The notes under the pieces: generated by a model
Seen by the model: only the letters and a program-made list of their open reading frames with translations
What the model was told of the DNA's origin: nothing
The model's database searches: none
Shown here: positions 6,076 through 57,360 of the stretch, piece by piece
How the letters are laid out: every line of letters begins with the position of its first letter
How positions within the stretch are numbered: position 1 is the stretch's first letter
Program-made: the position numbers and the translations under genes
NCBI GenBank assembly: GCA_023251555.1
Contig: JAHEYN010000017.1
Span: 2,693-66,692, forward strand
Direction: 5' to 3'
Source: Bacteroidota bacterium
GTDB lineage: Bacteria > Bacteroidota > Bacteroidia > AKYH767-A > JAHEYN01
Length of the DNA: 64,000 nt

Positions 6076-6483
6076 TTATACTTCACAGCTCCAGCTTATG
6101 GCAGCAGTCTTTTCGAGCATATAAGAAACCGAACAGTATTTTTTGAGCGAAAGGCGGATGGCATTTTCAAGTTTTCCTTTTTCCACGTTCTTCGCTCTGA
6201 AGTGAAGGTGAATTTTTGTAAAAGGAGAAAAACTCCCGATCTTTTCCTTTTCACCGCTGACACTGACCGTATAATCTTCGGGACTTTGCCTTTGCTTTTT
6301 AAGGATTGAAAGCACATCCATTGAGCTGCAGCTCCCGATGGCCATCAGCAGAAGGTCGGTAGGAAGAACGCCTTTGCCACTCCCTCCGATCCCTGCAGAG
6401 CCTTCTATCATCACTGCATTCCCATTCTCATCTTTCGCTTCAAGAAGCAGGGCTTCATTAACTCTGCTGATTTCCACCTTCAT
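6076..6483 (-). CDS. osmC: OsmC/Ohr family protein
   Basis: 135 aa; LLLMAIGSCSSMDVLSILKK and the C-terminal CSVSYML pattern fit the OsmC fold signature. Confidence 0.65.
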   Translation of the reverse strand: MKVEISRVNEALLLEAKDENGNAVMIEGSAGIGGSGKGVLPTDLLLMAIGSCSSMDVLSILKKQRQSPEDYTVSVSGEKEKIGSFSPFTKIHLHFRAKNVEKGKLENAIRLSLKKYCSVSYMLEKTAAISWSCEV

Positions 6484-6495
6484 AGTTATGCGCTT

Positions 6496-7260
6496 TTACT
6501 TTTTGGGAAGATACTGGAAAAAAGTGTCGCTTCTTAAGCCCAGCCTCAGCGTCTCAAGTGCAATGACTTCGGAAGGCGGAATGTTTCCGAGGTTTACATT
6601 GGCCCCTATGAGTTTTATGAAATAGGTCTGCTGGGATTTCTGGGGTGCTTCCCATATGATATTTTGCGAAGGAATTTTTGCAAGAATCCTGTTAATCAGC
6701 ACCACGTGAGCCTTTCCGCTTGGGCGGTAAATTCCTACTTTCCCGCTTTCCCTTGCTTCGGCAATCACTTTCCACGCTCCCGCATCGAGTTCTTTCTGCA
6801 TCATTTCTATCCACTTGTTTGGGTGAATGATGATACCCTCCTCTTTTGATCCTACCTCCGAAATTACGGTAACCCGCGCTGAGAGTTCTTTGATATACTT
6901 GCATTTTTCCGCATGCGGAATAATGATGGAGCCATCCGAAACTTCGGCATATTTCATTTCATACTTCTCAATGTAACGGAGGTAATCATCAAAACGTTTA
7001 CGTATAACGAAAGCCTCGAAAAGCGTTCCCCCAAAATAAACAGACAGCCCGGCCTTTTTATAAACATCCAGTTTTTTTTCAAGATCTCTGGTCACGAGTG
7101 CACTGCCGAATCCCAGTTTCAGAAGATCCGTGTATTCGGCATTTCCTGCAATAAAAGCTTCGGCTTCAGGAAGGCTCATGCCTTTGTCCATCACCATGGT
7201 GATGCCGCTTTCTCTCGGCTTTGAGGGTCTCGCCGGAATATGGGGGAGAGGGAAATTCAT
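6496..7260 (-). CDS. comA: (2R)-phospho-3-sulfolactate synthase, ComA family
   Basis: 254 aa; GITMVMDKG, LKLGFGSA, GGTLFEAF, EVSDGS, EARESGK, IWEAPQKSQQ, VNLGNI, EVIALETLRLGLRSDTF match the blocks I recall from M. jannaschii ComA almost one for one. Confidence 0.75.
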   Translation of the reverse strand: MNFPLPHIPARPSKPRESGITMVMDKGMSLPEAEAFIAGNAEYTDLLKLGFGSALVTRDLEKKLDVYKKAGLSVYFGGTLFEAFVIRKRFDDYLRYIEKYEMKYAEVSDGSIIIPHAEKCKYIKELSARVTVISEVGSKEEGIIIHPNKWIEMMQKELDAGAWKVIAEARESGKVGIYRPSGKAHVVLINRILAKIPSQNIIWEAPQKSQQTYFIKLIGANVNLGNIPPSEVIALETLRLGLRSDTFFQYLPKK

Positions 7261-8675: not shown

Positions 8676-8927
8676 ATGGGTAAAGAATAAAAGTTAATAA
8701 AACATAACTGCTCTCCAAAGATAAAAAAAATAAGGAATCAGTGAACCTAGCCGGGATGAAAAAAACAACCACATATGGGTGCCAAAGGTGAAGAAAATGA
8801 CATATACGGTGTTTTTGAGATATGCGCTGTCTTTTAGCTGATTTCCCCGGGGCTGCGAGGCTATTCAGTATGACAAATGTCATTACCTGGATATCTGGTT
8901 ATACTTAATTTTATTGCTGTAAAAAAT

Positions 8928-10397
8928 ATGAGGGTGATGAATAAAAAATATCTGAGATTTATTTTTATTTTGCTTCTGCCTTTTCTTGGGGTGAATTGTC
9001 GCCGTGATCTCCCTGTAATGGATGGAAGCGGTTACCCTAAGCGTATAGCCAAAATAATCCTGACACAATGCGTGGTTCCCGGATGCCATACGGAAGCGAG
9101 CAGGGAAGGGGCGGGCGGCTTATGCCTTTCAACATGGGATAAACTTTTTGAGGGCGGAATGAATAACTCTTCGGTGATCCCTTTCCGCCCCGATCAGAGT
9201 TTCTTCTTTTTTGCAATCAACACATTCCCGGATCTGGGTCCTTGCCTTAATCCTCCCATGCCTGCAGGCAGATCTTCTCTGGACCGTCAGGATGTTATTC
9301 TGATAAGAGACTGGATTGCGGCGGGTGCCCCGTCCGAAAGCGGGCAGGTAAAGTTTTCAGGGAATCCGGGCAGGAAAAAACTTTATGTTGCAAACCAGGG
9401 CTGCGACCTCGTAACAGTCTTTGATCTTGAAACAAAGCTGGTGATGAGGTGCATAGATGTGGGTAACAGCCCCTCAACGGAATCACCTCATGATATACAG
9501 GTGTCACCCGATGGTCAAAACTGGTATGTATCATTTTTTGCCAATGGAGTATTTCAGAAATACAGTGCTTCCGGTGACGTGAAAACCGGGGAGATTGACC
9601 TTTCAGACCCAAGCTGGCATTCGATGACTATCTCGCCTGATTCCAAATACGCCGTAATAAGTCATCTCGCTTCCGACGGGAAAGTGGCTCTTGTAAGTCT
9701 CAGCGACATGAAACTGGTTGCCAAATACAGCGGGAGCGGACTTTTTGTTTATCCGCACGGGTGCGCTTTTAATAAAAGTTCTTTAATATTTTATACTGTT
9801 TCTCTTCTCGGGAACTTTGTTTATAAAACTGATATCAGCAACCCGGCAGACCCTGTTATATCACAGGTACCCCTTCAGCCGGGCGAAGTTCCATCTCCCT
9901 ATGGACAAGAAAAACCTTATGAGGTGGATTTTACGCCGGACTTCAGCAGATACGTTGTCACATGCCAGGGAACACTCGATGTGCGCATATTTGATGCAGG
10001 TACGGATAGTCTCATGCAATCGATTCCTGCAACAGGAATTCCCCAAACCATGGCTTTTTCGGCTGACAATCATTATGTTTTCGTTACTAACATGGAAGAC
10101 TCTTCTCTTGCAGGAACCCGCAGCTCTGTTGATATTATTGATTTGAAAACAATGAGCAAGGCATTCACTGTATTTCCCGGATACCAGCCCCGCGGTCTCG
10201 CGGTAGATGACGATCACAGGGTGGTTTATATTGCCGATCGCAATGTAACTCCCGCAGGGCCCCAGCCTCATCACACCACTGCATGCAAGGGAAAAAGTGG
10301 ATATATCACTATGCTTGATATGAACACCATGCAGATGATCAGTACGTGGAGAACAGAAGTGTCAGTAGATCCATACAGCATGGCCATAAGGAAGTAG
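8928..10397 (+). CDS. Lipoprotein with an N-terminal PSCyt1-like (Planctomycete cytochrome c-like) domain carrying CX4CH, fused to a YVTN-type beta-propeller
   Basis: Start choice ambiguous (ATG at 8877, 8928 or 8937); signal LLLPFLGVNC; CVVPGCH ... NPPMPAGRSSLDRQDVILIRDWIAAGAP (MPP...L...WI..GA signature); then KKLYVANQGCDLVTVFDLETKLV and further propeller repeats. Confidence 0.6.
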   Translation: MRVMNKKYLRFIFILLLPFLGVNCRRDLPVMDGSGYPKRIAKIILTQCVVPGCHTEASREGAGGLCLSTWDKLFEGGMNNSSVIPFRPDQSFFFFAINTFPDLGPCLNPPMPAGRSSLDRQDVILIRDWIAAGAPSESGQVKFSGNPGRKKLYVANQGCDLVTVFDLETKLVMRCIDVGNSPSTESPHDIQVSPDGQNWYVSFFANGVFQKYSASGDVKTGEIDLSDPSWHSMTISPDSKYAVISHLASDGKVALVSLSDMKLVAKYSGSGLFVYPHGCAFNKSSLIFYTVSLLGNFVYKTDISNPADPVISQVPLQPGEVPSPYGQEKPYEVDFTPDFSRYVVTCQGTLDVRIFDAGTDSLMQSIPATGIPQTMAFSADNHYVFVTNMEDSSLAGTRSSVDIIDLKTMSKAFTVFPGYQPRGLAVDDDHRVVYIADRNVTPAGPQPHHTTACKGKSGYITMLDMNTMQMISTWRTEVSVDPYSMAIRK

Positions 10398-10413: not shown

Positions 10414-12678
10414 TCATTTTGCAATTAAAAATCTGCGGGACAGTTCCCCTTTATTGGTTTTTATTTTCAGAAAATAAAGGCCGGCATCCAGGTGCCTTAC
10501 ATCAACAGTGAACTCTCCGTTGTGAAAAGTTTGGGGAAGGGCAATGGCCCGGCCTGTAATGTCTTCTATGCCAAGCTGCTGAACCTGCAGAAGTGCTGTC
10601 TTGATAAAAAGATATTCAGAGGCAGGGTTGGGATAAAATGATATTTCCTTACCCGTAAATGCTGATTCATATGTCCCCGATATCTGGATGGAATCTTCAA
10701 CTGCCTGAAGGCTGACAGGATTTCCATCTTTATCAATCGCAAGAACAGAGGAGATCGAAAGCTTCAGGACTCCGTTTCCTGTAACGGTAAACAACAGGGT
10801 GGCTGCCAGTCCGTTTCCTGAAATATTTGTATGATCAATCCTTGACAATCCTATGTCAATCTTTCCGGAAGAAGAAAAGTCCTTTTCAAGATGCACGAGG
10901 TTGAAAGCAGGCGTAAGCCAGGAGCCTGTGTAATCCACACTGACTCCCCCCTGCACTAAGGAAGGATCATAATTCACGGAAAAGGCTGCTCCATAAATAT
11001 CAGCCACAGGACTGGCAGGTGTTCCCATCTTAACAGGAACACTAACTACAGTGGCTGCTGCCACAACGCCCGGCGGTACTTCAAAATATAATTCCGGAGT
11101 ACCGGAATATGTTTCACTGAAACTGTTCTTTAAATGAGTCTGTCCGTAATTGAGAGAAACGGCCGTAGTATCGGCCTGGTCAACAGTACCAGTGCCGTCA
11201 CAATCAGCATGTTTCATGTTAACTCCGTTTGTAAACTGTGAACCCCAGTCGGCAGACTGTTGTGCGGTCCAGCTGTTCGATGCCGCGGTACGTGCAGGCC
11301 CCGATGCGTTGTAAGCGATGCCGATATACAAAATATCTTTATTGTCTGCAATCTTGTCATAATTGGCATCTCCGGGCCACACATTAGTAAGCGGAGGGGT
11401 ACATCCGCTCCAGATCCATCCTGAATTATTATTTATGTTCGTGCTGTTTCCTCCCGCATAAAAGGACGCCCCGCCTGCCACATGTATGTCCTGCATATCT
11501 ACATAATCCATACAGACACTGCCTGAAGATTTGCTCAATACAGACTGCGTTCCTGCTGAACTGCTCTGCATTGCAATTGAAAACCCCTGGCTGCCGGTGG
11601 CAAAGAGGTAATCACTGACCGTTTGAGTGTCTGATGCTCCAAGCTGGATAAGATAGCCGGGGTTCATGAACAGGAGAGAGTCAAAAGAATTATTTCCTGA
11701 AACACCTGCGGTATTTGAAAAAATAACTCTGTGAAAAACATTGCTGCCGGACAGTATATTCCCGTCGGCATTGAAGGCTATCTCGTTGAAGCTGTTGTTG
11801 CTTCCGGATATTGTTCCTGTACCTGTGAATGAGACGTTATGAACAATACAATGAGATACTTCAAGGCTTCCTGTTGAAGTAAAGATGACGTCATTATAAG
11901 TATTAAATCCCAAAGTGTCACTGAACGAGGTGCTGCATTTAATATATGCGCTGTCGGCATCAAGCATGGCCGGATATCCATCTACGATCCATGACTGGCA
12001 ATATATATCGGAAACACCCAGATACATGGATGACGTTGAAGAAGAGAATATTTCAAAAATGCCGCATTGTATTGTATGTCCTCCCGTAATAAACTTCCCC
12101 CCCGAGAGTGTTATGTCCGAACATTTCAGCGTATCGGCCAGCGTCCATTCCCCCCCAGGGTTGCTGAATATGAAGTCTGTGTGGGAATAAGAGGCGTTGG
12201 GAAGCAGAATCCCGCTGAGTTTTTTTTCCGAAGTGGAGATGGTGAAAACCCCCGAAGCAGTAAATGAAAGATCTCCCACAAGGCACCAGGACATGTTAGT
12301 TCCCAGGGTGACAGAGCCATATACTTTTATACTCGCATACGGAAGACCATCGTCATTGGCAAGTGCCGGGCTGTTCGATACTCCTGACCAGTCCATATCC
12401 TGGCAGTAAACTTCTGCAGAGTCAATATATACGGTGTCGCCTCCGGATAAAAATGAAGCAGCATTAAAATACACATTGTCGGAAGGGGAGGGGGGCTGGG
12501 AATAAAATGCAATCCCGCCCGGTGAAGTAGCCCAGTGGGAAGCATAGTCATTCCACTTTCCTGTTCCTCCTACCCAGTAAAAGTCGGCAGCCCGAAGAGA
12601 GGATGCATCTCCTGCATAAGCCAGGCAAAGACAAAGCATGTGTTTTACAAATGAGCCGTGTGCGCTGCGGAGTTGCAT
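10414..12678 (-). CDS. Large secreted T9SS cargo protein (beta-helix-like) with type-A C-terminal sorting domain
   Basis: 754 aa; N-terminal signal; ADFYWVGGTGKWND motif; C-terminus ISFYPNPASEYLFIK...DVRHLDAGLYFLKIKTNKGELSRRFLIAK typical of the Por/T9SS CTD. Confidence 0.7.
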   Translation of the reverse strand: MQLRSAHGSFVKHMLCLCLAYAGDASSLRAADFYWVGGTGKWNDYASHWATSPGGIAFYSQPPSPSDNVYFNAASFLSGGDTVYIDSAEVYCQDMDWSGVSNSPALANDDGLPYASIKVYGSVTLGTNMSWCLVGDLSFTASGVFTISTSEKKLSGILLPNASYSHTDFIFSNPGGEWTLADTLKCSDITLSGGKFITGGHTIQCGIFEIFSSSTSSMYLGVSDIYCQSWIVDGYPAMLDADSAYIKCSTSFSDTLGFNTYNDVIFTSTGSLEVSHCIVHNVSFTGTGTISGSNNSFNEIAFNADGNILSGSNVFHRVIFSNTAGVSGNNSFDSLLFMNPGYLIQLGASDTQTVSDYLFATGSQGFSIAMQSSSAGTQSVLSKSSGSVCMDYVDMQDIHVAGGASFYAGGNSTNINNNSGWIWSGCTPPLTNVWPGDANYDKIADNKDILYIGIAYNASGPARTAASNSWTAQQSADWGSQFTNGVNMKHADCDGTGTVDQADTTAVSLNYGQTHLKNSFSETYSGTPELYFEVPPGVVAAATVVSVPVKMGTPASPVADIYGAAFSVNYDPSLVQGGVSVDYTGSWLTPAFNLVHLEKDFSSSGKIDIGLSRIDHTNISGNGLAATLLFTVTGNGVLKLSISSVLAIDKDGNPVSLQAVEDSIQISGTYESAFTGKEISFYPNPASEYLFIKTALLQVQQLGIEDITGRAIALPQTFHNGEFTVDVRHLDAGLYFLKIKTNKGELSRRFLIAK

Positions 12679-48081: not shown

Positions 48082-48960
48082 TTACTTTGCAATCACCGTA
48101 TCATAAACTGTTCCATAGCCTCCCCATATTCCAATTCCTCCGCTGATATTTGTTTTAATGGTAGTAGGTGATGCGAATGGGTTTCCGTTACTGTTGGATT
48201 CCACTTCCGCAAGCCTCCAGAAATCAAAAGTGGCCTGGTCTATAGTACTCCATTTGAGAACGATAGTATCACCTTTCTTAAAATACCCCCACTCCCCCGG
48301 GGCTTCAGACTCCGCGTTTCCTCCCCTCTCCCATCCGCGTTCAATATAAAATTTAAAGTTTTTTCCGTTTATAAATTTATCTTCAAAAACAGAACCGAAA
48401 GAAGCCAGAAAATCCTTATCCTTATTCAGGCGTTTAACCATATATTTATAGCAATTTCCATATGAAGGAGGGTCTGTTATGAGGCACCACAGATAGCCAA
48501 GGGAATCTTTCTTTCCTTCGGTGCTGAACCATACAGAGTCAAGGGGAAGAAGTGCAGGGATAAGGGTCTGGGCAGTTAATGACTGTTCTCCCGATTCGAC
48601 CCTGAGTGTGTATGTTTTACCCGCTTCCCCTTTCATATTAAAAGCCTGGTAAAAAAAACCGGGAATTATTTCTTTCAGGGTATCTGCAGTAACTCCGTCA
48701 CTGACTGTTACGAGAGCCCCCTTTACCCCATATTGCTGCAGAGAAGAAGAATCGAGGGGAGCAAAATACGGTGCTGTCTTTGAAAGCATCACATAAGGAT
48801 GTTCTCCGTTTTCGATATAACCTTCCACCACAATTTTGTTCTCTGCGGAAGGAAGATCTATTGTGATTTCCTTTTCACAGGACAAAATAAATGGCAAGAA
48901 GAATAAAGAAATCAAAAGTGAGCTGCAAAGGGTAGGGATATGTTTTTTCATATACAGCAT
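48082..48960 (-). CDS. DUF4249 family lipoprotein (partner of the upstream TonB-dependent receptor)
   Basis: Lipobox FILSC; EITIDLP...KIVVEGYIENGE...YVMLSKT N-terminal pattern; an alternative ATG lies at 48951. Confidence 0.6.
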   Translation of the reverse strand: MLYMKKHIPTLCSSLLISLFFLPFILSCEKEITIDLPSAENKIVVEGYIENGEHPYVMLSKTAPYFAPLDSSSLQQYGVKGALVTVSDGVTADTLKEIIPGFFYQAFNMKGEAGKTYTLRVESGEQSLTAQTLIPALLPLDSVWFSTEGKKDSLGYLWCLITDPPSYGNCYKYMVKRLNKDKDFLASFGSVFEDKFINGKNFKFYIERGWERGGNAESEAPGEWGYFKKGDTIVLKWSTIDQATFDFWRLAEVESNSNGNPFASPTTIKTNISGGIGIWGGYGTVYDTVIAK

Positions 48961-48965
48961 GGAAA

Positions 48966-51335
48966 TCAGAATTTAAAATTCCAGGTTACTGACGGTATAA
49001 CAGGGAAAAGGGATACCTGTTTAGCTTTGAGGTCAAGGGTTCCTTTCTCAAGATTACCAGTGTTTTCAAAATAAATGAAATAAGGATTATGGCGGTTGTA
49101 TACATTATAAACGGAGAGGTTCCATGAGGACTCATAGCGAAGATGTTTTTTCCCTGTATAAGTGATTGAAACATCCATCCTGTGATAAGGATCCATGCGG
49201 AACCAGTTTCTGCCTCCCCACTCCGTGTGTATTTCTCCGTTGATAAAATAGCGGGCCACAGGAAGTGTAATGGCATTCCCTGTTCCATAAACAAAAACGG
49301 ATGAGAATGACCAGTGTGCATTCAGATCGTATGTGGCAATAGCAGACAGGTCGTGTCTTCTGTCATAGCGGGCATAATACTCTTCGCCCAGATTAATTTC
49401 AGGGAACTTTCTTTTTGTCCAGGACAAAGTGTATCCAATCCACCCGTTCAGCTTGCCCGTTCTTTTTTTCAGAAACAGTTCAAGGCCGTATGACCATCCC
49501 TTCCCGAAAGTAAAGCTGTTATCAATGTTATTATTGATATTATCTTCAGGAAGAGAACCTTCTTTATAATCAATCAGGTTTTTCATGTCTTTATAATACA
49601 CTTCGGCTGAGGTCTCATAAATATCTTTGCTGAAATTCCTGAAATATCCGATTGCATACTGCTTCCCGACCTGTGGCTTTATCAACAGGGAGCTTGGCAC
49701 CCATATATCTGTAGGGAGGGTTATGGACGACATTGATGCAAGGTGCATGTATTGGTTATTCATGGTAAATGAAGCTTTTACAGAAGAGAACTCATCAACT
49801 GCATAGCGGAGCGAGATTCTTGGTTCAGGGCCATGATAGGTCTTTATGTTCCGGAAGGGGTCGTAATGAATTGTATCTGTAATTCTGCCGGTAAGGCTAT
49901 CCGTTACAAACCTGTCGTATGGACCGGTATGCTGAAATGCGGAATACCGGATGCCTGCATTGAGCTTAAAACGATCAGAGATGTCAATATCATCTGAAAA
50001 ATAGAGTGCGCCTTCATTGGCATACTGCCGGATAATTTTTTCAGGAGCCAGTTCCACTTCTCCCGACCTGGCAGAAATACTGCTGGGGGTGAACGTGTGA
50101 AAAATATAATTTACACCATACCTGATACTGTGCTTTACGTTTGGATAATAGCTGAAGTCAACCTTGGCATTCCAGTCCCTTATTCCAGAATACAACCGGA
50201 ACTCGAACTTATCCTGCAAGGCTTTCATTTCAAATTTATAATCGCTGAAGAGCGCCATAGCATTCATAAACAGTTTATCGTTAAAAAGGTGATTCCATCT
50301 CAGGGTGGTAGTGGCATTACCCCATGGGATGGAAACACCAAAATCCGATCCTTTGTTTTTAAAACTGAAAACATCTCTGCCGAAATAACCGCTGAGCAGC
50401 AGACGGTCCTTATCGGAAATCCTGTAATTAATCTTTGTGTTGAGGTCATAAAAGAAATACCCTGACCCTTCAAACTCTGATTTTTGAGAAGAAAACAGTT
50501 GGGCTGTTTTTGTAAGAATATCAGCGTATGTTCTCCTGGCAGAAATAATAAACGAAGATGTATCTTTTTTCAAAGGTCCCTGCACCGTAAGCCTGGAGGA
50601 GATCAGCCCGATACCTCCTTCCGCATGATAAGACCGGTTATTCCCTTCTTTCATTGATACATCAAGCACGGAAGCCAGTCTGCCTCCGTAGCTGGCGGGC
50701 ATACCTCCCTTGATGAGCGTCACATTTTTCACTGCGTCGGCATTGAACACCGAGAAAAAACCAAAAAGGTGTGAAGCGTTGTATACCACCGATTCATCCA
50801 GGAGAATAAGATTCTGGTCGGGTCCGCCGCCGCGTACATAATAACCCGCATTACCCTCCCCTGCCGACTGGACTCCCGGCAGGAGCTGTATGGTTTTAAG
50901 AATATCCACCTCACCCATAAAAGCGGGAATTGATTTAATCGTTTCTATGGATATTTCGGTGGTTCCCATTTCTGTTCCTTTCAGATTCTTATCAGCGCGC
51001 TCAGCTTCAATAAGCACTTCCTTTGCCATCATTGACTTACTCATGAGATCTGCGTTAAGCCTGATATTCTTATCAAGAAAAACAGCATATACGGTATCCA
51101 TGAAACCAAGAAATGAAATCCCGATGTGATAAGTTCCTTTTTCAAGTGTAAGAGAGTAAAACCCATACTGGTTGGTAGTGGTTCCCTTCAGTATTTCTTT
51201 CACATAAACATTGGCCCCGATAAGATATTCGCCGCTCCCCGACTCTTTCACATAACCACTCACGGTATATTTTTCCTGGGCGGAAAGAGTATGTATGAGA
51301 AAGAATAGCAAAAAAAACGCGGCGATTTTTTTCAT
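48966..51335 (-). CDS. TonB-dependent outer-membrane receptor with N-terminal carboxypeptidase-regulatory-like domain
   Basis: 789 aa; signal; YTVSGYVKESGSGEYLIGANVYVK (CarbopepD_reg); plug and 22-strand barrel; terminal aromatic F. Confidence 0.75.
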   Translation of the reverse strand: MKKIAAFFLLFFLIHTLSAQEKYTVSGYVKESGSGEYLIGANVYVKEILKGTTTNQYGFYSLTLEKGTYHIGISFLGFMDTVYAVFLDKNIRLNADLMSKSMMAKEVLIEAERADKNLKGTEMGTTEISIETIKSIPAFMGEVDILKTIQLLPGVQSAGEGNAGYYVRGGGPDQNLILLDESVVYNASHLFGFFSVFNADAVKNVTLIKGGMPASYGGRLASVLDVSMKEGNNRSYHAEGGIGLISSRLTVQGPLKKDTSSFIISARRTYADILTKTAQLFSSQKSEFEGSGYFFYDLNTKINYRISDKDRLLLSGYFGRDVFSFKNKGSDFGVSIPWGNATTTLRWNHLFNDKLFMNAMALFSDYKFEMKALQDKFEFRLYSGIRDWNAKVDFSYYPNVKHSIRYGVNYIFHTFTPSSISARSGEVELAPEKIIRQYANEGALYFSDDIDISDRFKLNAGIRYSAFQHTGPYDRFVTDSLTGRITDTIHYDPFRNIKTYHGPEPRISLRYAVDEFSSVKASFTMNNQYMHLASMSSITLPTDIWVPSSLLIKPQVGKQYAIGYFRNFSKDIYETSAEVYYKDMKNLIDYKEGSLPEDNINNNIDNSFTFGKGWSYGLELFLKKRTGKLNGWIGYTLSWTKRKFPEINLGEEYYARYDRRHDLSAIATYDLNAHWSFSSVFVYGTGNAITLPVARYFINGEIHTEWGGRNWFRMDPYHRMDVSITYTGKKHLRYESSWNLSVYNVYNRHNPYFIYFENTGNLEKGTLDLKAKQVSLFPVIPSVTWNFKF

Positions 51336-53150: not shown

Positions 53151-53597
53151 TCACTTCGTTACTGTAATTGCGGTACTGGTGACCGTATTGCTTTCATGCC
53201 CTGCACGATCCAACAAGTGAACAGAATATGTAACCGTTTGGGATGAAGATCCGTCTGTAATCCCTGTATTCCGGATGGAGACGGATAAATTCCCCCTGAT
53301 AATAATCCCGGCTCCCTGTGGTGCCAGCTGGGGAATGCGGTATTCATAGGTAACTCCGATACGGTTATCGGTAATAAAAAGATTTTTTACATCCGGGCTA
53401 TCTTCTCCAAGATCTCCGTCGCCATCTTCGTATGAAATGACAAAGACAACAGCTTCCTTATATTCTTTAACGGAAGAAGGAGAAACGCTCTCAAGTTTTA
53501 TTTGAGGAACGTCGCTATAGACGGGGGCATCCTTTTTGCAGGAACCAAGGAGAGTTGCTCCAAGTAGAAGTAAAGCCGGAAAAATAAAAATCTTCAT
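53151..53597 (-). CDS. Hypothetical lipoprotein (last gene of the DUF1501 operon)
   Basis: 148 aa; lipobox LLGSC; start overlaps the upstream gene stop by 4 bp. Confidence 0.6.
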   Translation of the reverse strand: MKIFIFPALLLLGATLLGSCKKDAPVYSDVPQIKLESVSPSSVKEYKEAVVFVISYEDGDGDLGEDSPDVKNLFITDNRIGVTYEYRIPQLAPQGAGIIIRGNLSVSIRNTGITDGSSSQTVTYSVHLLDRAGHESNTVTSTAITVTK

Positions 53598-54514
53598 TGT
53601 ATCTTAAAGGAGTAATATGTTTTGTACCCGGCGGCCGATTCTGCGGAAGGGAATTCTGTATCAGCAGCATGATTTCCATCGTTCACATAATATCTCATAT
53701 ATAGCACATCTCCAACAGAAAAAACAGAAGCATTAACATCTGCAATCCATAAGCTGTACCCGCCCAAAGAAAAATAATAAGCACTGTAAATTGCGGAAGA
53801 GGCGAAATCATTCATCGCATATGAAAGTTTTAATTTATTCACCGTCAGTGCAGAAACGGCAGTGCTGTCGTCTTCCACAACCATTACAATTTTTATTTTT
53901 GAATTTGCGGAGACAATGAAAGGATTATAAAACACACCCCCTACCCTGATGCTGTCTATTCTGTTAAAAGCAGAATCGGTAGCAATATACCCTACCACGA
54001 CTGGTTTTGTATTAGGAAGCGCGGGAGAATTTCCGAACATATCCCTGGCGCCATCCATTATCCATTTATTGATACAATTCATTTCTGAAGCTGACAAAGG
54101 AGAAGAGTATAACGGCATGCGGCCGAGATTGGCATCGTCGGTAGTAAGACGTTCATGAAACCAGGACGCAGCAGTGTCGTAAGGCACTACGCGGTATCTG
54201 AATGCAGAGTCGACAGTATATTTTTTAACGGGATGATAAACGAGGGTAGAATAAGAAGATTGCACTGTGCGGTAATCCGGTTCAAAATGCCCGTCGTGGC
54301 AGCCAGGCATGGCACATTTCACACGAAGAATATTGTAATGTATCCCGACGATAGTATTAGGGTCGGGAGGCTGGGAGCTTCCCCCGCCTGTTCCATAATC
54401 AATTGTATCGTAAGGATTGGGAGGAGGTGCGTCTTTTTTGCAACTATCAGACAAGACGGAAACAACAATACCGGTGAACAGAGCCGGGAGAAGATATCTA
54501 ATTACCCTGCTCAT
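53594..54514 (-). CDS. Lipoprotein with PSCyt1-like (Planctomycete cytochrome c-like) domain, CX4CH motif
   Basis: 306 aa; lipobox LSDSC; CAMPGCHDGHFEP ... LGRMPLYSSPLSASEMNCINKWIMDGARD parallels CVVPGCH ... NPPMPAGRSSLDRQDVILIRDWIAAGAP in the 8928-10397 protein. Confidence 0.55.
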   Translation of the reverse strand: MSRVIRYLLPALFTGIVVSVLSDSCKKDAPPPNPYDTIDYGTGGGSSQPPDPNTIVGIHYNILRVKCAMPGCHDGHFEPDYRTVQSSYSTLVYHPVKKYTVDSAFRYRVVPYDTAASWFHERLTTDDANLGRMPLYSSPLSASEMNCINKWIMDGARDMFGNSPALPNTKPVVVGYIATDSAFNRIDSIRVGGVFYNPFIVSANSKIKIVMVVEDDSTAVSALTVNKLKLSYAMNDFASSAIYSAYYFSLGGYSLWIADVNASVFSVGDVLYMRYYVNDGNHAADTEFPSAESAAGYKTYYSFKIQ

Positions 54515-55839
54515 ATAAAAGCCTGCTGAAGATCGCAGGAGGAGAAGGGTTTAAGGAGCCCGGAGGAGATGTCTCCCTCAAAACCGAGGATATCAGCTAT
54601 TGCAGGAACTATTTCAATACTTTCTCCCGCCACTGCGTTTATAACCTGGTTCTGTTTAACCACTGACGGAGGTCCCGCAACGAGGCAAAAAATATTCCTT
54701 GCATTCTGGTCTCCCCCGGATGCGGGAGCAGTATGGTCAATGGCATATCTTCCGAAGGTATCCACAAGTGTGTTGCTCTGCAGGTTGCGGCCGTGCTCCG
54801 GGGCGACAATAAGTATAGTGTCATTCATCATGCCCGGTGTGCTCTGTATCATATTCCAGAGGTGGGCAACGGCATAATCCGCTTTGCGGAGATTGTTGCA
54901 ATACGCAGTGAAGTTGGAATGGCATATATCCACTCCCTGCATGTTCACGACGAGCAATTCCGGCTTGTATTCCCTGATAATTTCTTCTGCAAAAAAGACA
55001 TTAAACATATCGTTATTCATGGCTGCCCCTGCCCCCCAGGGATCAGCGTATTGGCCCGACATCGCTTTGGAAAACAGTCCTGAGAGATATGCCTGTATGG
55101 ATTCCGAAACAGCCAGGGGATTCACAACGCCTGCCTCTTCAGGGTTGTACTGCCCGGAAAAGTTAGCGTCGAGGAAGCCTCGCAGCCCGGAAGATGAGGC
55201 TTTCTGAGAGGACGAAAAGATTTTCGGTGTTCCGAGAACGGAATATCCATCAACCCCGATAAGGTTTGTAGGTGCAATAAAATTAGCCCCGTACATACTT
55301 CCATACCCGGGGTACCGGCTGTAGTTAAGGGCGGGATAAGGGCCGAGGGTATCTGAGATCCACCATGCATTCAATGCTGCAGGTGAAGGGGTATTGTGTT
55401 TCCTGTAATATTCAAAAACGGTAGGGTGTTCAGGGTGTTCCCTGAGATTCAGGTCGGTGTCTGTGTAAACTCCGGTGATTGCGGCAGTATGCCCGTTGAA
55501 ATGCCCTGTGGGTCCTCCGGCATAACGGAATTCCCTGAAAAGCGTTCCATAATTCTGGAGGGGCATGGGGAGAGGCGATGCCGGGAGGGGCTGTATTCCT
55601 CCAAGGATACCGGGGTTGATATTTTCAGTACCATTGAGGATGTTGGGCATAAGATTGCCTTCCGATTTCTGTGTGGATTCAAAATTACGTACTCCCCCGG
55701 CGTAAAGGCAAAACACTACATGGTTTGCTTTCCTTGCGCCTGAAGCGGCAAACAGGCGGCCCGACGGAAGGATATAGGGAGCTATAAAAGAACCGGCTGC
55801 TGCAAGCCCCGTGGATCTTATGAATGTGCGTCTTTTCAT
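54511..55839 (-). CDS. DUF1501 family protein (Tat-exported, sulfatase / alkaline-phosphatase-like fold)
   Basis: 442 aa; twin-arginine signal MKRRTFIRSTGLAAAGSFIAP; VVFCLYAGGVRNFES fits the DUF1501 GG-S/x-x-D block. Confidence 0.6.
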   Translation of the reverse strand: MKRRTFIRSTGLAAAGSFIAPYILPSGRLFAASGARKANHVVFCLYAGGVRNFESTQKSEGNLMPNILNGTENINPGILGGIQPLPASPLPMPLQNYGTLFREFRYAGGPTGHFNGHTAAITGVYTDTDLNLREHPEHPTVFEYYRKHNTPSPAALNAWWISDTLGPYPALNYSRYPGYGSMYGANFIAPTNLIGVDGYSVLGTPKIFSSSQKASSSGLRGFLDANFSGQYNPEEAGVVNPLAVSESIQAYLSGLFSKAMSGQYADPWGAGAAMNNDMFNVFFAEEIIREYKPELLVVNMQGVDICHSNFTAYCNNLRKADYAVAHLWNMIQSTPGMMNDTILIVAPEHGRNLQSNTLVDTFGRYAIDHTAPASGGDQNARNIFCLVAGPPSVVKQNQVINAVAGESIEIVPAIADILGFEGDISSGLLKPFSSCDLQQAFI

Positions 55840-55842
55840 AGC

Positions 55843-56349
55843 TCAGTAATATCTGTATTCATTTGAAGTAAGGAAAGAGTAATAAACGAGCTCAGGAGTA
55901 ACGGACGTATCTGATTTAATAAGATTTGTAACGAACCATTTCTCATACTCATTGGGAGAACGATTATAAAATTTTTTATACGTGTCTGAAACAAACTTGC
56001 CCACATCCGCCGTCATGGATGCTTTTGCCGGCACCTGGGGCGGAGGGGTTGTCCTGTTCAGAAAATTACGGATTACCATATCTTCAATAAGCTTGCGGTC
56101 GCCGAAAGAGGAATATGCCGTTGAGAGCTTTACCAGATCCGCATTACTGATAGATGTGCCGAAAATATCCGCATATGCAATTGAAATAAACTCCGTAGTT
56201 GTTTTGACATTGGGCTTAAGGCTTCCTTCCTGGGAAACAGTCACATCCTTTACTCCATACACATAACTTTTTTCTTTACGGCAGGATGTAACGGCAGGAA
56301 GGATGAGAAGTAGCGAAAATGTGCAGGCAGACAGAATTTTATTGTACAT
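55843..56349 (-). CDS. Hypothetical lipoprotein, paralog A
   Basis: 168 aa; lipobox AVTSC; FYNRSPNEYEK core and C-terminal FLTSNEYRYY shared with the upstream gene. Confidence 0.55.
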   Translation of the reverse strand: MYNKILSACTFSLLLILPAVTSCRKEKSYVYGVKDVTVSQEGSLKPNVKTTTEFISIAYADIFGTSISNADLVKLSTAYSSFGDRKLIEDMVIRNFLNRTTPPPQVPAKASMTADVGKFVSDTYKKFYNRSPNEYEKWFVTNLIKSDTSVTPELVYYSFLTSNEYRYY

Positions 56350-56358
56350 GGGGAAAGT

Positions 56359-57225
56359 TTATTTTATGCCGGCATATTCATCCGAGGAGAGAATTTTTTT
56401 CTGCAATCCTTCATAGCTGCCGGAAGATTTATACAGAGCTGTGCATTCCGATATCTCCGTTGATCCGGGCAGGCGGAAGAGATACCTGGAGTACAGATCT
56501 CTCACCTGGCCTTCGAGGTAATCGGCGGAGGCAAAGAATATGGAGAGGAAATCCTTTTTCCCAACCCCGGCCTGGAAGAACACGGAGGCGTTGAACCCGT
56601 CCACCATCCGGCTTGCGGATTGGAGCTCGGCATCAGTAGGGTATCTGTAAAGAAAATGCTGCCACATGGAAACCACGAAGTTGGCGGTTCCCATATTTAT
56701 CTGGTCATAGAAATAATTGTTCACACATCTCCCGTACAGTTCTTTTTCGTCTATGGTTCCGTCCTTAAGCCCTGCAGGCACAGCACGTAAATCATTCAGT
56801 CTTGTGATTTCATTTCCTAGCAGGTCCCATATCACGAAATAACTGCTGTCCTGAAGGAGTACCTGGAAAACAGCTATCATCTGAGCGATCTCGTTTGTAT
56901 CCTGGTCATTGAGGAGATCAATTCTTGCAATGGAGTACAGGTGCTCCCTGTATTCCGGTTTCATGAAAACAGTATCGAGGATTTCCCGGCGGTCGGCTCC
57001 GGAGAAATTGTTTTTACCGGCAATCAGCATACACTGCTGAAACTCTCCGGCAGCAGGCTTCCGCCCCAGAATGCTGATAAATACTTTGTTGATATACGAT
57101 TCCTTAAGGGAGGCAGGAATGGTTTTGTCAGGCGGAGGAGTGTTGCCGGAAATAACGACTTCTTCGTATTTCTTACATCCGGAAAAAAGAAGGATGAGTG
57201 AGAGATATAATAGAGTTATATGCAT
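56359..57225 (-). CDS. Hypothetical lipoprotein, paralog B
   Basis: Lipobox LLFSGC from the ATG at 57225 (ORF track extends to a GTG at 57237); FLYRYPTDAEL core and C-terminal ILSSDEYAGIK. Confidence 0.55.
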   Translation of the reverse strand: MHITLLYLSLILLFSGCKKYEEVVISGNTPPPDKTIPASLKESYINKVFISILGRKPAAGEFQQCMLIAGKNNFSGADRREILDTVFMKPEYREHLYSIARIDLLNDQDTNEIAQMIAVFQVLLQDSSYFVIWDLLGNEITRLNDLRAVPAGLKDGTIDEKELYGRCVNNYFYDQINMGTANFVVSMWQHFLYRYPTDAELQSASRMVDGFNASVFFQAGVGKKDFLSIFFASADYLEGQVRDLYSRYLFRLPGSTEISECTALYKSSGSYEGLQKKILSSDEYAGIK

Positions 57226-57360
57226 GGGGGGAAGCACTGATGGGGAATTAGAAATTCAAATATATGAAAATATACAAAGCGCAATAATTTACACGGATGC
57301 ATGGATAGACCGGATCTTTGTATCAAATTGCTGCCTGGATTCTTCCCCCCACTCCCACTC

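Follow-up and report, generated by a model that had tools for sequence, protein, structure and literature searches.

Cytochrome c domains of the PSCyt1 kind ('Planctomycete cytochrome C', PF07635) and the dihaem Fe(II) oxidase FoxE (5mab) share one layout: a helix ending in Cys...Cys-His, a G-L-x-L stretch, a serine, a Met-Pro pair and a closing helix that reads W-I-x-x-G-A. The haems of FoxE are His/Met-ligated, with the methionine ligands swapped between its two domains (PMC10654088). Here, we describe two lipoproteins that keep this layout around an atypical attachment motif, both encoded in a 64,000-nucleotide stretch (the window) of the Bacteroidota bacterium assembly GCA_023251555.1 (contig JAHEYN010000017.1, positions 2,693 to 66,692). 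Protein 1 joins the domain to a seven-bladed YVTN beta-propeller, and protein 2 carries it ahead of a further C-terminal domain within a five-gene cassette. Unlike PSCyt1 and FoxE, which have CXXCH and occur in Planctomycetes or Proteobacteria, the protein 1 family is found in Bacteroidia and has CX4CH with a conserved glycine before the second cysteine. Its members each have one such domain; FoxE has two, between which the Met ligands are exchanged.

Other described systems resemble protein 1 in part. Cytochromes c3 are alike in motif spacing and local sequence, but their fold is unrelated, and they are multihaem and bis-His-ligated, whereas the domain of protein 1 is class-I-like with a conserved methionine and a single predicted haem. 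NirS and NirN have the same order of an N-terminal haem-c domain followed by a beta-propeller; theirs is eight-bladed and binds haem d1, whereas protein 1 has seven YVTN blades and about 11% identity to them. Propellers of the YVTN/YncE type (1l0q, TIGR02276) agree in repeat type and blade number, to which protein 1 adds the fused domain, family-specific invariant His/Cys/Asp/Arg residues and a 20-residue PHH...C loop. In our literature search, all descriptions of CX4CH concerned multihaem proteins (cytochromes c3, anammox enzymes, iron-oxidiser candidates and MmcA of Methanosarcina), and there was nothing on CX4CH in PSCyt1-like or Bacteroidia proteins. The cytochrome-c-type domain, the propeller type and the style of architecture that combines haem c with a propeller are already known; new here are the atypical attachment motif, conserved family-wide, and the uncharacterised propeller pocket.

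Our preferred reading, to which we assign a probability of about 0.7, is that protein 1 carries a lipid-anchored monohaem c domain, probably His/Met-ligated, which exchanges electrons with a pocket of conserved residues at one propeller face. Protein 1 would be exported to the periplasm, possibly to the cell surface, and held there by its lipid anchor. The N-terminal domain (about 110 residues) would be a class-I-type cytochrome c of the PSCyt1/FoxE kind whose attachment motif is widened by two residues. One haem would be covalently held through Cys45 and Cys50, with His51 as the presumed proximal ligand and Met108 of the conserved Met-Pro as the presumed distal one. The domain could then relay single electrons between a respiratory-chain partner and the propeller-face pocket, whose candidate residues are Q154, C156, D157, H185, H274, R435, N436, H445, H446 and C450 and which may hold a metal. 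On this reading the propeller probably carries a redox-active site.

The open reading frame (ORF) of protein 1 occupies 8877..10397 (+) of the window and has in-frame ATG codons at 8877, 8928 and 8937. A preliminary description of the locus had set the start at 8928, while the public gene call (P0001, 100% identical; contig of 101,592 bp) begins at 8937 and yields 486 residues, from which our residue numbers count. The difference is confined to the signal peptide, and the motifs quoted in that description (CVVPGCH, WIAAGA) are indeed present in the reading frame. The N-terminus, MNKKYLRFIFILLLPFLGVNC, is a signal peptide ending at a conserved cysteine, so protein 1 is most simply taken as a lipoprotein; 97% of 181 non-redundant orthologues share this lipobox residue, Cys21. 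An AlphaFold model of the full protein has a predicted local distance difference test score (pLDDT) of 90.2 and a predicted template modelling score (pTM) of 0.88. In the N-terminal domain it places helices at residues 35-45, 68-71, 89-94 and 117-128, with Cys45 at the end of the first and W126 on the last.

The link to cytochrome c is carried by profile comparisons. Protein 1 matches Pfam PSCyt1 with an E value of 0.029 as a whole protein and 0.003 (18.6 bits) as a domain alone, and 22 of 24 orthologous N-domains match the same family, the best with E = 1.5e-6. Seventeen of the 24 also match the haem-c domain of CTI, a family whose N-terminus bears a CXXCH haem-c motif. In the PDB, a profile built from the N-domains (A3) finds FoxE (E = 0.0044), in an alignment that runs from the CH through G-L-x-L-S and MP to W-I-x-x-G-A-P. 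When A3 was run exhaustively against 1.84 billion representative proteins, it returned 5933 of them at E <= 1e-3, 542 at <= 1e-10 and 94 at <= 1e-30. The best 150 proteins hold 192 domain instances: 130 with CX4CH, 52 with CXXCH, 6 with CX3CH, 1 with CX6CH and 3 without such a motif. Most of the 192 contain both MP and W-x-x-x-G-[AG].

Some of these matches are tandem arrays in which the two spacings can be compared directly. Five CXXCH repeats are found in P0258 and three CX4CH repeats in P0366; P0355 combines three CXXCH repeats with one CATAGCH repeat in one chain. The last repeat reads RCATAGCH in P0355, RCVACH in P0377 and HCISCH in P0258. Since the last repeat of P0355 corresponds to CXXCH repeats of the other two, a single homologous site can have either CX4CH or CXXCH. 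The arrays P0355, P0377, P0258, P0241 and P0366 have 3 to 8 PSCyt1-like domains with Gly-rich linkers between them, and mix CXXCH with CX3CH (CSDACH) or CX4CH repeats within a chain. In P0321, five repeats occur without Met-Pro.

An alignment of 22 CXXCH repeats (A4) ties these domains to solved cytochromes. In the PDB it matches FoxE (E = 5.6e-19), hydrazine synthase alpha in its C-terminal haem domain (5c2v_A 644-769; 8e-9) and cytochrome c6 (4e-5), as well as CcoP and other class I cytochromes. When A3 was compared with A4 by hhalign (99.5%, E = 4e-23), the first cysteines were paired, a two-column gap followed, and CH was paired with CH. The protein 2 family aligned with A4 across an identical two-column gap (97.8%, E = 7.8e-13). 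By sequence comparison, the CX4CH domain is thereby homologous to PSCyt1/FoxE-type domains, with a two-residue insertion inside the CXXCH motif. There is also a structural precedent for the spacing. The family consensus 'lkkCatsGChneaskda' has a local match in YQKCATAGCHDNMDKKD, residues 43-59 of cytochrome c3 (2cdv), a solved CX4CH haem site that reads KCATAGCH against the family's kCAtsGCH; with E = 1.2, this match speaks for chemical feasibility only and not for homology.

The positions that would bind haem are strongly conserved. At least 97% of the 181 orthologues keep C45, G49, C50, H51, M108, P109, W126, G130 and A131. Among the listed members, CX4CH occurs in 120/120 of each family, with no internal cysteine giving CXXCH, and MP in 118/120 of the protein 1 family and 120/120 of the protein 2 family. 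Neither family has the canonical CXXCH by which a c-type cytochrome is recognized. The preliminary description had proposed a PSCyt1-like identity built on this cysteine motif; the significant profile matches to cytochrome c domains and the conservation of the cysteines in orthologues both uphold it.

Protein 1 has 406 homologues, of which the full-length orthologues are 40 to 60% identical and all come from Bacteroidia metagenome-assembled genomes. Its relatives have the motif in the form C-[AS]-x-x-G-C-H. A scan of one genome per species with a full-length alignment, in which the blade 7 loop motif G[PW][AQ]PHH[TS][TSG]xC was the search pattern, found at least 422 relatives. The best 80 all keep CX4CH and are all from Bacteroidota metagenome-assembled genomes (Flavobacteriales, Chitinophagales, Saprospiraceae and unclassified Bacteroidia). 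Some genomes have two paralogues; in five of them the two cytochrome-propeller genes lie on separate contigs (loci L006/L046, L011/L024, L016/L033, L008/L067 and L009/L059). Existing names for these proteins are 'YncE family', 'DNA-binding beta-propeller fold protein YncE', 'YVTN family beta-propeller protein' and 'hypothetical', with no cytochrome annotation.

Several results limit this identification or weigh against a haem-bearing, redox-active protein. The PSCyt1 score of protein 1 (15.4 to 18.6 bits) is under the gathering cut-off of 22, and Foldseek with the isolated N-domain model found no significant cytochrome. A PDB search with the single N-domain sequence of protein 1 gave nothing significant, and a word-indexed homologue search with the N-domain alone gave no match. 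Protein 2 has no direct Pfam or PDB match, so its cytochrome link runs via profiles only; searched against the PDB, its family profile reaches at best about E = 1.3 (cytochrome c6, FoxE). The gene neighbourhood of protein 1 is unconserved (83 loci, partial synteny) and therefore offers no functional clue. The 64-kb window has no canonical CXXCH cytochrome, and Pfam scans of 30 window ORFs, together with regular-expression searches of the window and related loci, found neither a WWD motif nor any ccsA, ccsB or ccm gene. In E. coli, the Ccm system reportedly accepts a monohaem cytochrome whose motif has been changed to CX3CH or CX4CH; Bacteroidia presumably rely on CcsBA, and less is known of how far CcsBA tolerates CX4CH. 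Finally, since FoxE swaps its methionines between domains, Met ligation within the single domain of protein 1 is an extrapolation, and dimerization with Met exchange is a possibility.

The sub-threshold PSCyt1 score, the negative fold search with the isolated domain and the lack of maturation genes in the window would also suit a haem-free relic, in which the insertion into CXXCH put an end to haem attachment, the cysteine pair forms a disulfide or, with His51, a metal site (Zn or Cu, for example), and the domain covers the propeller as a lid with a structural or ligand-binding role. Thiol chemistry of this sort would also fit the DCC1-like oxidoreductase found directly downstream in some of the orthologous loci (table 1). 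Relics, however, normally lose their ligand set, whereas the four His/Met haem positions are kept in at least 97% of the 181 orthologues and again in another family, at no more than 24% identity. Moreover, CX4CH stands beside CXXCH repeats within one polypeptide, and the identical CATAGCH heptapeptide binds haem in solved cytochromes c3. Taking both sides together, we consider a relic unlikely.

The C-terminal part of protein 1 is a YVTN propeller, as had been proposed. It scores above the cut-offs of the TIGR02276 YVTN repeat (36.9 bits, cut-off 27.85) and of Lactonase PF10282 (29.9, cut-off 21.7), and the 28 strands of the AlphaFold model make up seven blades. The best PDB match of the full model in Foldseek is the YVTN propeller 1l0q (E = 3e-20, template modelling score 0.68 on the target). 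Next come NirN (6rtd, 6rte; E = 2.5e-18 to 1.9e-17) and, lower, the cd1 protein NirS (6tsi, E = 1.0e-16; 1gjq and 1nir, E = 1.6e-15 to 3.7e-15), with hydrazine synthase beta also among the matches. The NirN/NirS alignments cover 496 to 564 columns and extend beyond the propeller into the cytochrome domain, at a root-mean-square deviation of 12 to 18 Å, so the domain arrangement differs.

Membership of described propeller families was rejected in each case considered. For cytochrome cd1/NirN, the PF02239 score is 13.5 bits against a cut-off of 25.5, and the propeller has seven blades. The YncE family (NF052280) gives 36.9 bits against an equivalog cut-off of 400, and hydrazine synthase beta (NF052340) 54.1 against 560. 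The Clade III lactonase-type nitrous-oxide reductase L-NosZ (NF052460) gives 40.6 bits against 700, over positions 46-168 of 480 only, and the protein 1 orthologues have only four invariant histidines.

The propeller has a strongly conserved set of residues of its own. At least 97% of the 181 orthologues keep N153-Q-G-C156-D157, D163, R171, E182, P184-H185, D192, W227, H274-G275, Y339, R350, S375, R435-N436, G441, P444-H445-H446, C450, G452, G455, E474 and D478-P-Y480. By the strand order of the model, these residues map to alternate loops of the meander or to the adjoining strand starts, and the 20-residue conserved loop lies between strands 429-434 and 455-461. Because alternate loops of an up-and-down meander point the same way, the topology suggests that the conserved residues share one face. 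We infer that this face forms a pocket, possibly a metal site with four histidines and two cysteines. Protein 1 departs from most of its orthologues at two places: residue 385 (window 10089-10091) is Asn where 92% of the 181 have Cys (VTCMED), and Ser454 is Asn in 92%. Cys343 (TCQG), at the equivalent place one blade earlier than 385, is kept.

These features invite a broader proposal: the cytochrome-propeller family would be an undescribed class of periplasmic haem-c-dependent redox enzymes, so far from uncultured Bacteroidia only, with a metal centre formed by H185, H274, H445, H446, C156 and C450 and with a relaxed or dedicated maturation system for CX4CH, a motif that recurs in the protein 2 cassette and prevails among the nearest matches of the domain search. 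We regard this extension as doubtful, if worth stating.

Protein 1 might instead be a non-enzyme accessory lipoprotein of TonB-dependent iron, haem or metal uptake. Here the propeller would capture the ligand, much as BtuG- or YncE-like proteins do, and the haem domain would reduce or oxidize the metal or its chelate. In some loci, a haem/haemoglobin-type TonB receptor or a small lipoprotein is encoded upstream on the same strand (table 1), and the nearest solved relative of the haem domain is an Fe(II) oxidase, FoxE. E. coli YncE, which is Fur-regulated and encoded beside the receptor gene yncD, offers a parallel. But the receptor association is confined to a minority of loci and absent at the window locus, the score for the YncE equivalog falls far short of its cut-off, and the presumed pocket of invariant His, Cys, Asp and Arg residues seems closer to a catalytic or metal site than to a surface for ligand capture. 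An uptake accessory is thus quite improbable in our judgement.

The preferred reading draws on a second family, and the two modules of the window are homologous. BLASTP of the N-terminal regions of protein 1 and protein 2 gives E = 5e-4 at 24% identity over 101 residues, and a profile-profile comparison of the two families (A1 against A2) a probability of 98.7% and E = 4e-16 over 127 columns. The alignment pairs lipobox with lipobox, CxxxGCH with CxxPGCH, MP with MP and WIxxGA with WIxxGA. The pairwise identity is low and protein 2 lacks Pfam and PDB matches of its own, but chance resemblance of two unrelated proteins is refuted by the three profile-profile comparisons (E = 4e-16 between the families, 4e-23 and 7.8e-13 for each family separately with CXXCH domains).

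The claim that both proteins share one module thus stands. On the other hand, its companion claim, an expansion of the family within this genome, finds no support. A six-frame scan of the 64 kb with three profile hidden Markov models found exactly two PSCyt1-like domains, whether CXXCH or CX4CH, and just four additional stand-alone copies turned up in 984 kb of related loci. Expansion is unsupported because each of the two copies comes from a different family, and both families are widespread. The stand-alone copies are ORFs of 125-163 residues near the fused gene (L042 2782-3195, L051 5605-5979, L083 2961-3449 and L012 8514-8939); three have CX4CH (CNTAGCH, CVSSGCH, CNSSGCH) and one CXXCH (CTRCH).

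Protein 2 homologues form at least 770 sequence clusters, all unnamed or called 'hypothetical protein' and without a recorded Pfam domain. H73, M133 and P134 are invariant among the protein 2 sequences aligned, and the first two could serve as ligands. The gene belongs to a cassette whose five-gene order is kept in three genomes (window 53151-57237 (-), L003 7298-11385 and L004 7144-11451), with products of about 290, 160, 440, 306 and 150 residues in order. The proteins of about 440 residues match DUF1501 (E = 0.16) and Sulfatase (E = 0.0057); the L003 orthologue matches Phosphodiest with 26.2 bits against a cut-off of 23, the sole cassette match above a curated cut-off. The proteins of about 290 residues match PSD1 positions 216-243 with E = 0.21, 0.0039 and 0.0028 in the three genomes. 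PSCyt2 (DUF1549) was not found in a Pfam scan of the cassette proteins.

In Planctomycetes, a PSCyt1-PSCyt2-PSD1 protein (DUF1549/DUF1553) is paired with a DUF1501 protein. The cassette shows a comparable combination, in which a PSCyt1-like domain is accompanied by putative counterparts of the PSD1 C-terminal end and of the DUF1501 protein (the latter Tat-exported), but its modules are spread over five small genes. From its sequences, the cassette may correspond to the Planctomycete pair in a split and diverged form, and we offer this as a lead. The protein 2 domain is probably the electron-carrying module of the cassette system. Some 2 kb away, and on the strand of the cassette, the window encodes a TonB-dependent receptor (CarboxypepD_reg) and a DUF4249 lipoprotein (48082-51335 (-)).

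Table 1. Features of the two CX4CH lipoproteins, the protein 2 cassette and the genes that recur beside protein 1 orthologues (coordinates refer to the window unless a locus is named).
Feature	Position	Strand	Length, basis or occurrence
Gene, protein 1: lipoprotein with cytochrome-c-like domain and seven-bladed YVTN propeller	8937..10397	+	486 aa; P0001
Signal peptide and lipobox to Cys21 (codon 8997-8999)	8937..8999	+	MNKKYLRFIFILLLPFLGVNC; lipidation predicted
PSCyt1/FoxE-type cytochrome-c-like domain, residues ~31-140	9027..9356	+	profile matches, model helices
CX4CH C45-V-V-P-G-C50-H51; presumed thioether cysteines and proximal His	9069..9089	+	conservation, hhalign
M108-P109; presumed distal Met ligand	9258..9263	+	>=97% conserved; aligns with MP of CXXCH domains and FoxE
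W126-I-A-A-G-A131, C-terminal helix of the domain	9312..9329	+	motif, model
Seven-bladed YVTN beta-propeller, residues ~146-486	9372..10394	+	family scores, model, Foldseek
Blade 7 long loop R435-N436...P444-H445-H446...C450-x-G452...G455	10239..10301	+	most conserved propeller stretch
Gene, protein 2: lipoprotein (Cys25) with second CX4CH module and C-terminal domain	53594..54514	-	306 aa
Cytochrome-c-like module of protein 2, residues ~55-165	54020..54352	-	hhalign
CX4CH of protein 2, C67-A-M-P-G-C72-H73, then invariant D-G-x-F-E-P	54296..54316	-	motif, alignment
M133-P134 of protein 2 (RMP = residues 132-134)	54113..54118	-	invariant in 32 sequences
W151-I-M-D-G-A156 of protein 2	54047..54064	-	motif, alignment
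Cassette: lipoprotein without family match; start overlaps protein 2 stop	53151..53597	-	148 aa
Cassette: twin-arginine (Tat) signal, weakly alkaline-phosphatase superfamily (DUF1501, Phosphodiest, Sulfatase)	54511..55839	-	442 aa
Cassette: weak DUF4214 matches	55843..56349	-	168 aa
Cassette: sub-threshold matches to PSD1 (DUF1553) C-terminal end and DUF4214	56359..57237	-	~290 aa
DCC1-like thiol-disulfide oxidoreductase (PF04134, E 1e-31)	directly downstream of protein 1 orthologues, abutting or overlapping the stop		23/83 loci
Lipoprotein without family match, 128 aa	upstream, median 80 bp (e.g. L017 2321-2707)	same	25/83 loci
FG-GAP protein with type IX secretion system (T9SS) tail	upstream (e.g. 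L062 3753-5948)	same	22/83 loci
TonB-dependent receptor, haem/haemoglobin type	upstream (e.g. L034 2450-4837)	same	16/83 loci

The four recurrent neighbours of protein 1 orthologues (the DCC1-like protein, the 128-residue lipoprotein, the FG-GAP protein and the TonB receptor) are all missing next to the protein 1 gene in the window. The DCC1-like oxidoreductase, with examples at L001 11431-11850, L050 7163-7576 and L059 7410-7832, might act on the cysteines of the cytochrome-propeller protein. The TonB-dependent receptor matches TIGR01785 with E = 2.5e-45, under its cut-off. In the window itself, protein 1 is flanked by a divergent tetratricopeptide repeat (TPR) gene and a convergent gene for a cohesin-domain T9SS protein (10414-12678 (-); 754 residues, with a T9SS C-terminal sorting domain), which ends 16 bp from it. 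The TPR gene is in an apparent operon with a homologue of (2R)-phospho-3-sulfolactate synthase ComA (6076-7260 (-); PF02679, E = 2e-85), after which an OsmC-like protein is encoded. Outside methanogens, ComA is an unusual find; a link with the metabolism of sulfonates or sulfonolipids is possible. The right side of the window holds only glycosyl- and methyltransferases.

Cytochrome surveys that rely on CXXCH counts or Pfam cut-offs miss both families. If haem binding is true, two families (at least 422 species-level genomes for one and at least 770 clusters for the other) would have CX4CH as the standard motif of a monohaem class-I-type domain, which would constitute a natural test of the motif spacing tolerated by cytochrome maturation in Bacteroidia. 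It would also point to an uncharacterised redox propeller enzyme and a conserved cassette of five genes in Bacteroidia that are abundant in freshwater, soil and groundwater. Should the reading as a class of redox enzymes be true as well, CXXCH-based surveys would systematically overlook a whole set of Bacteroidia cytochromes.

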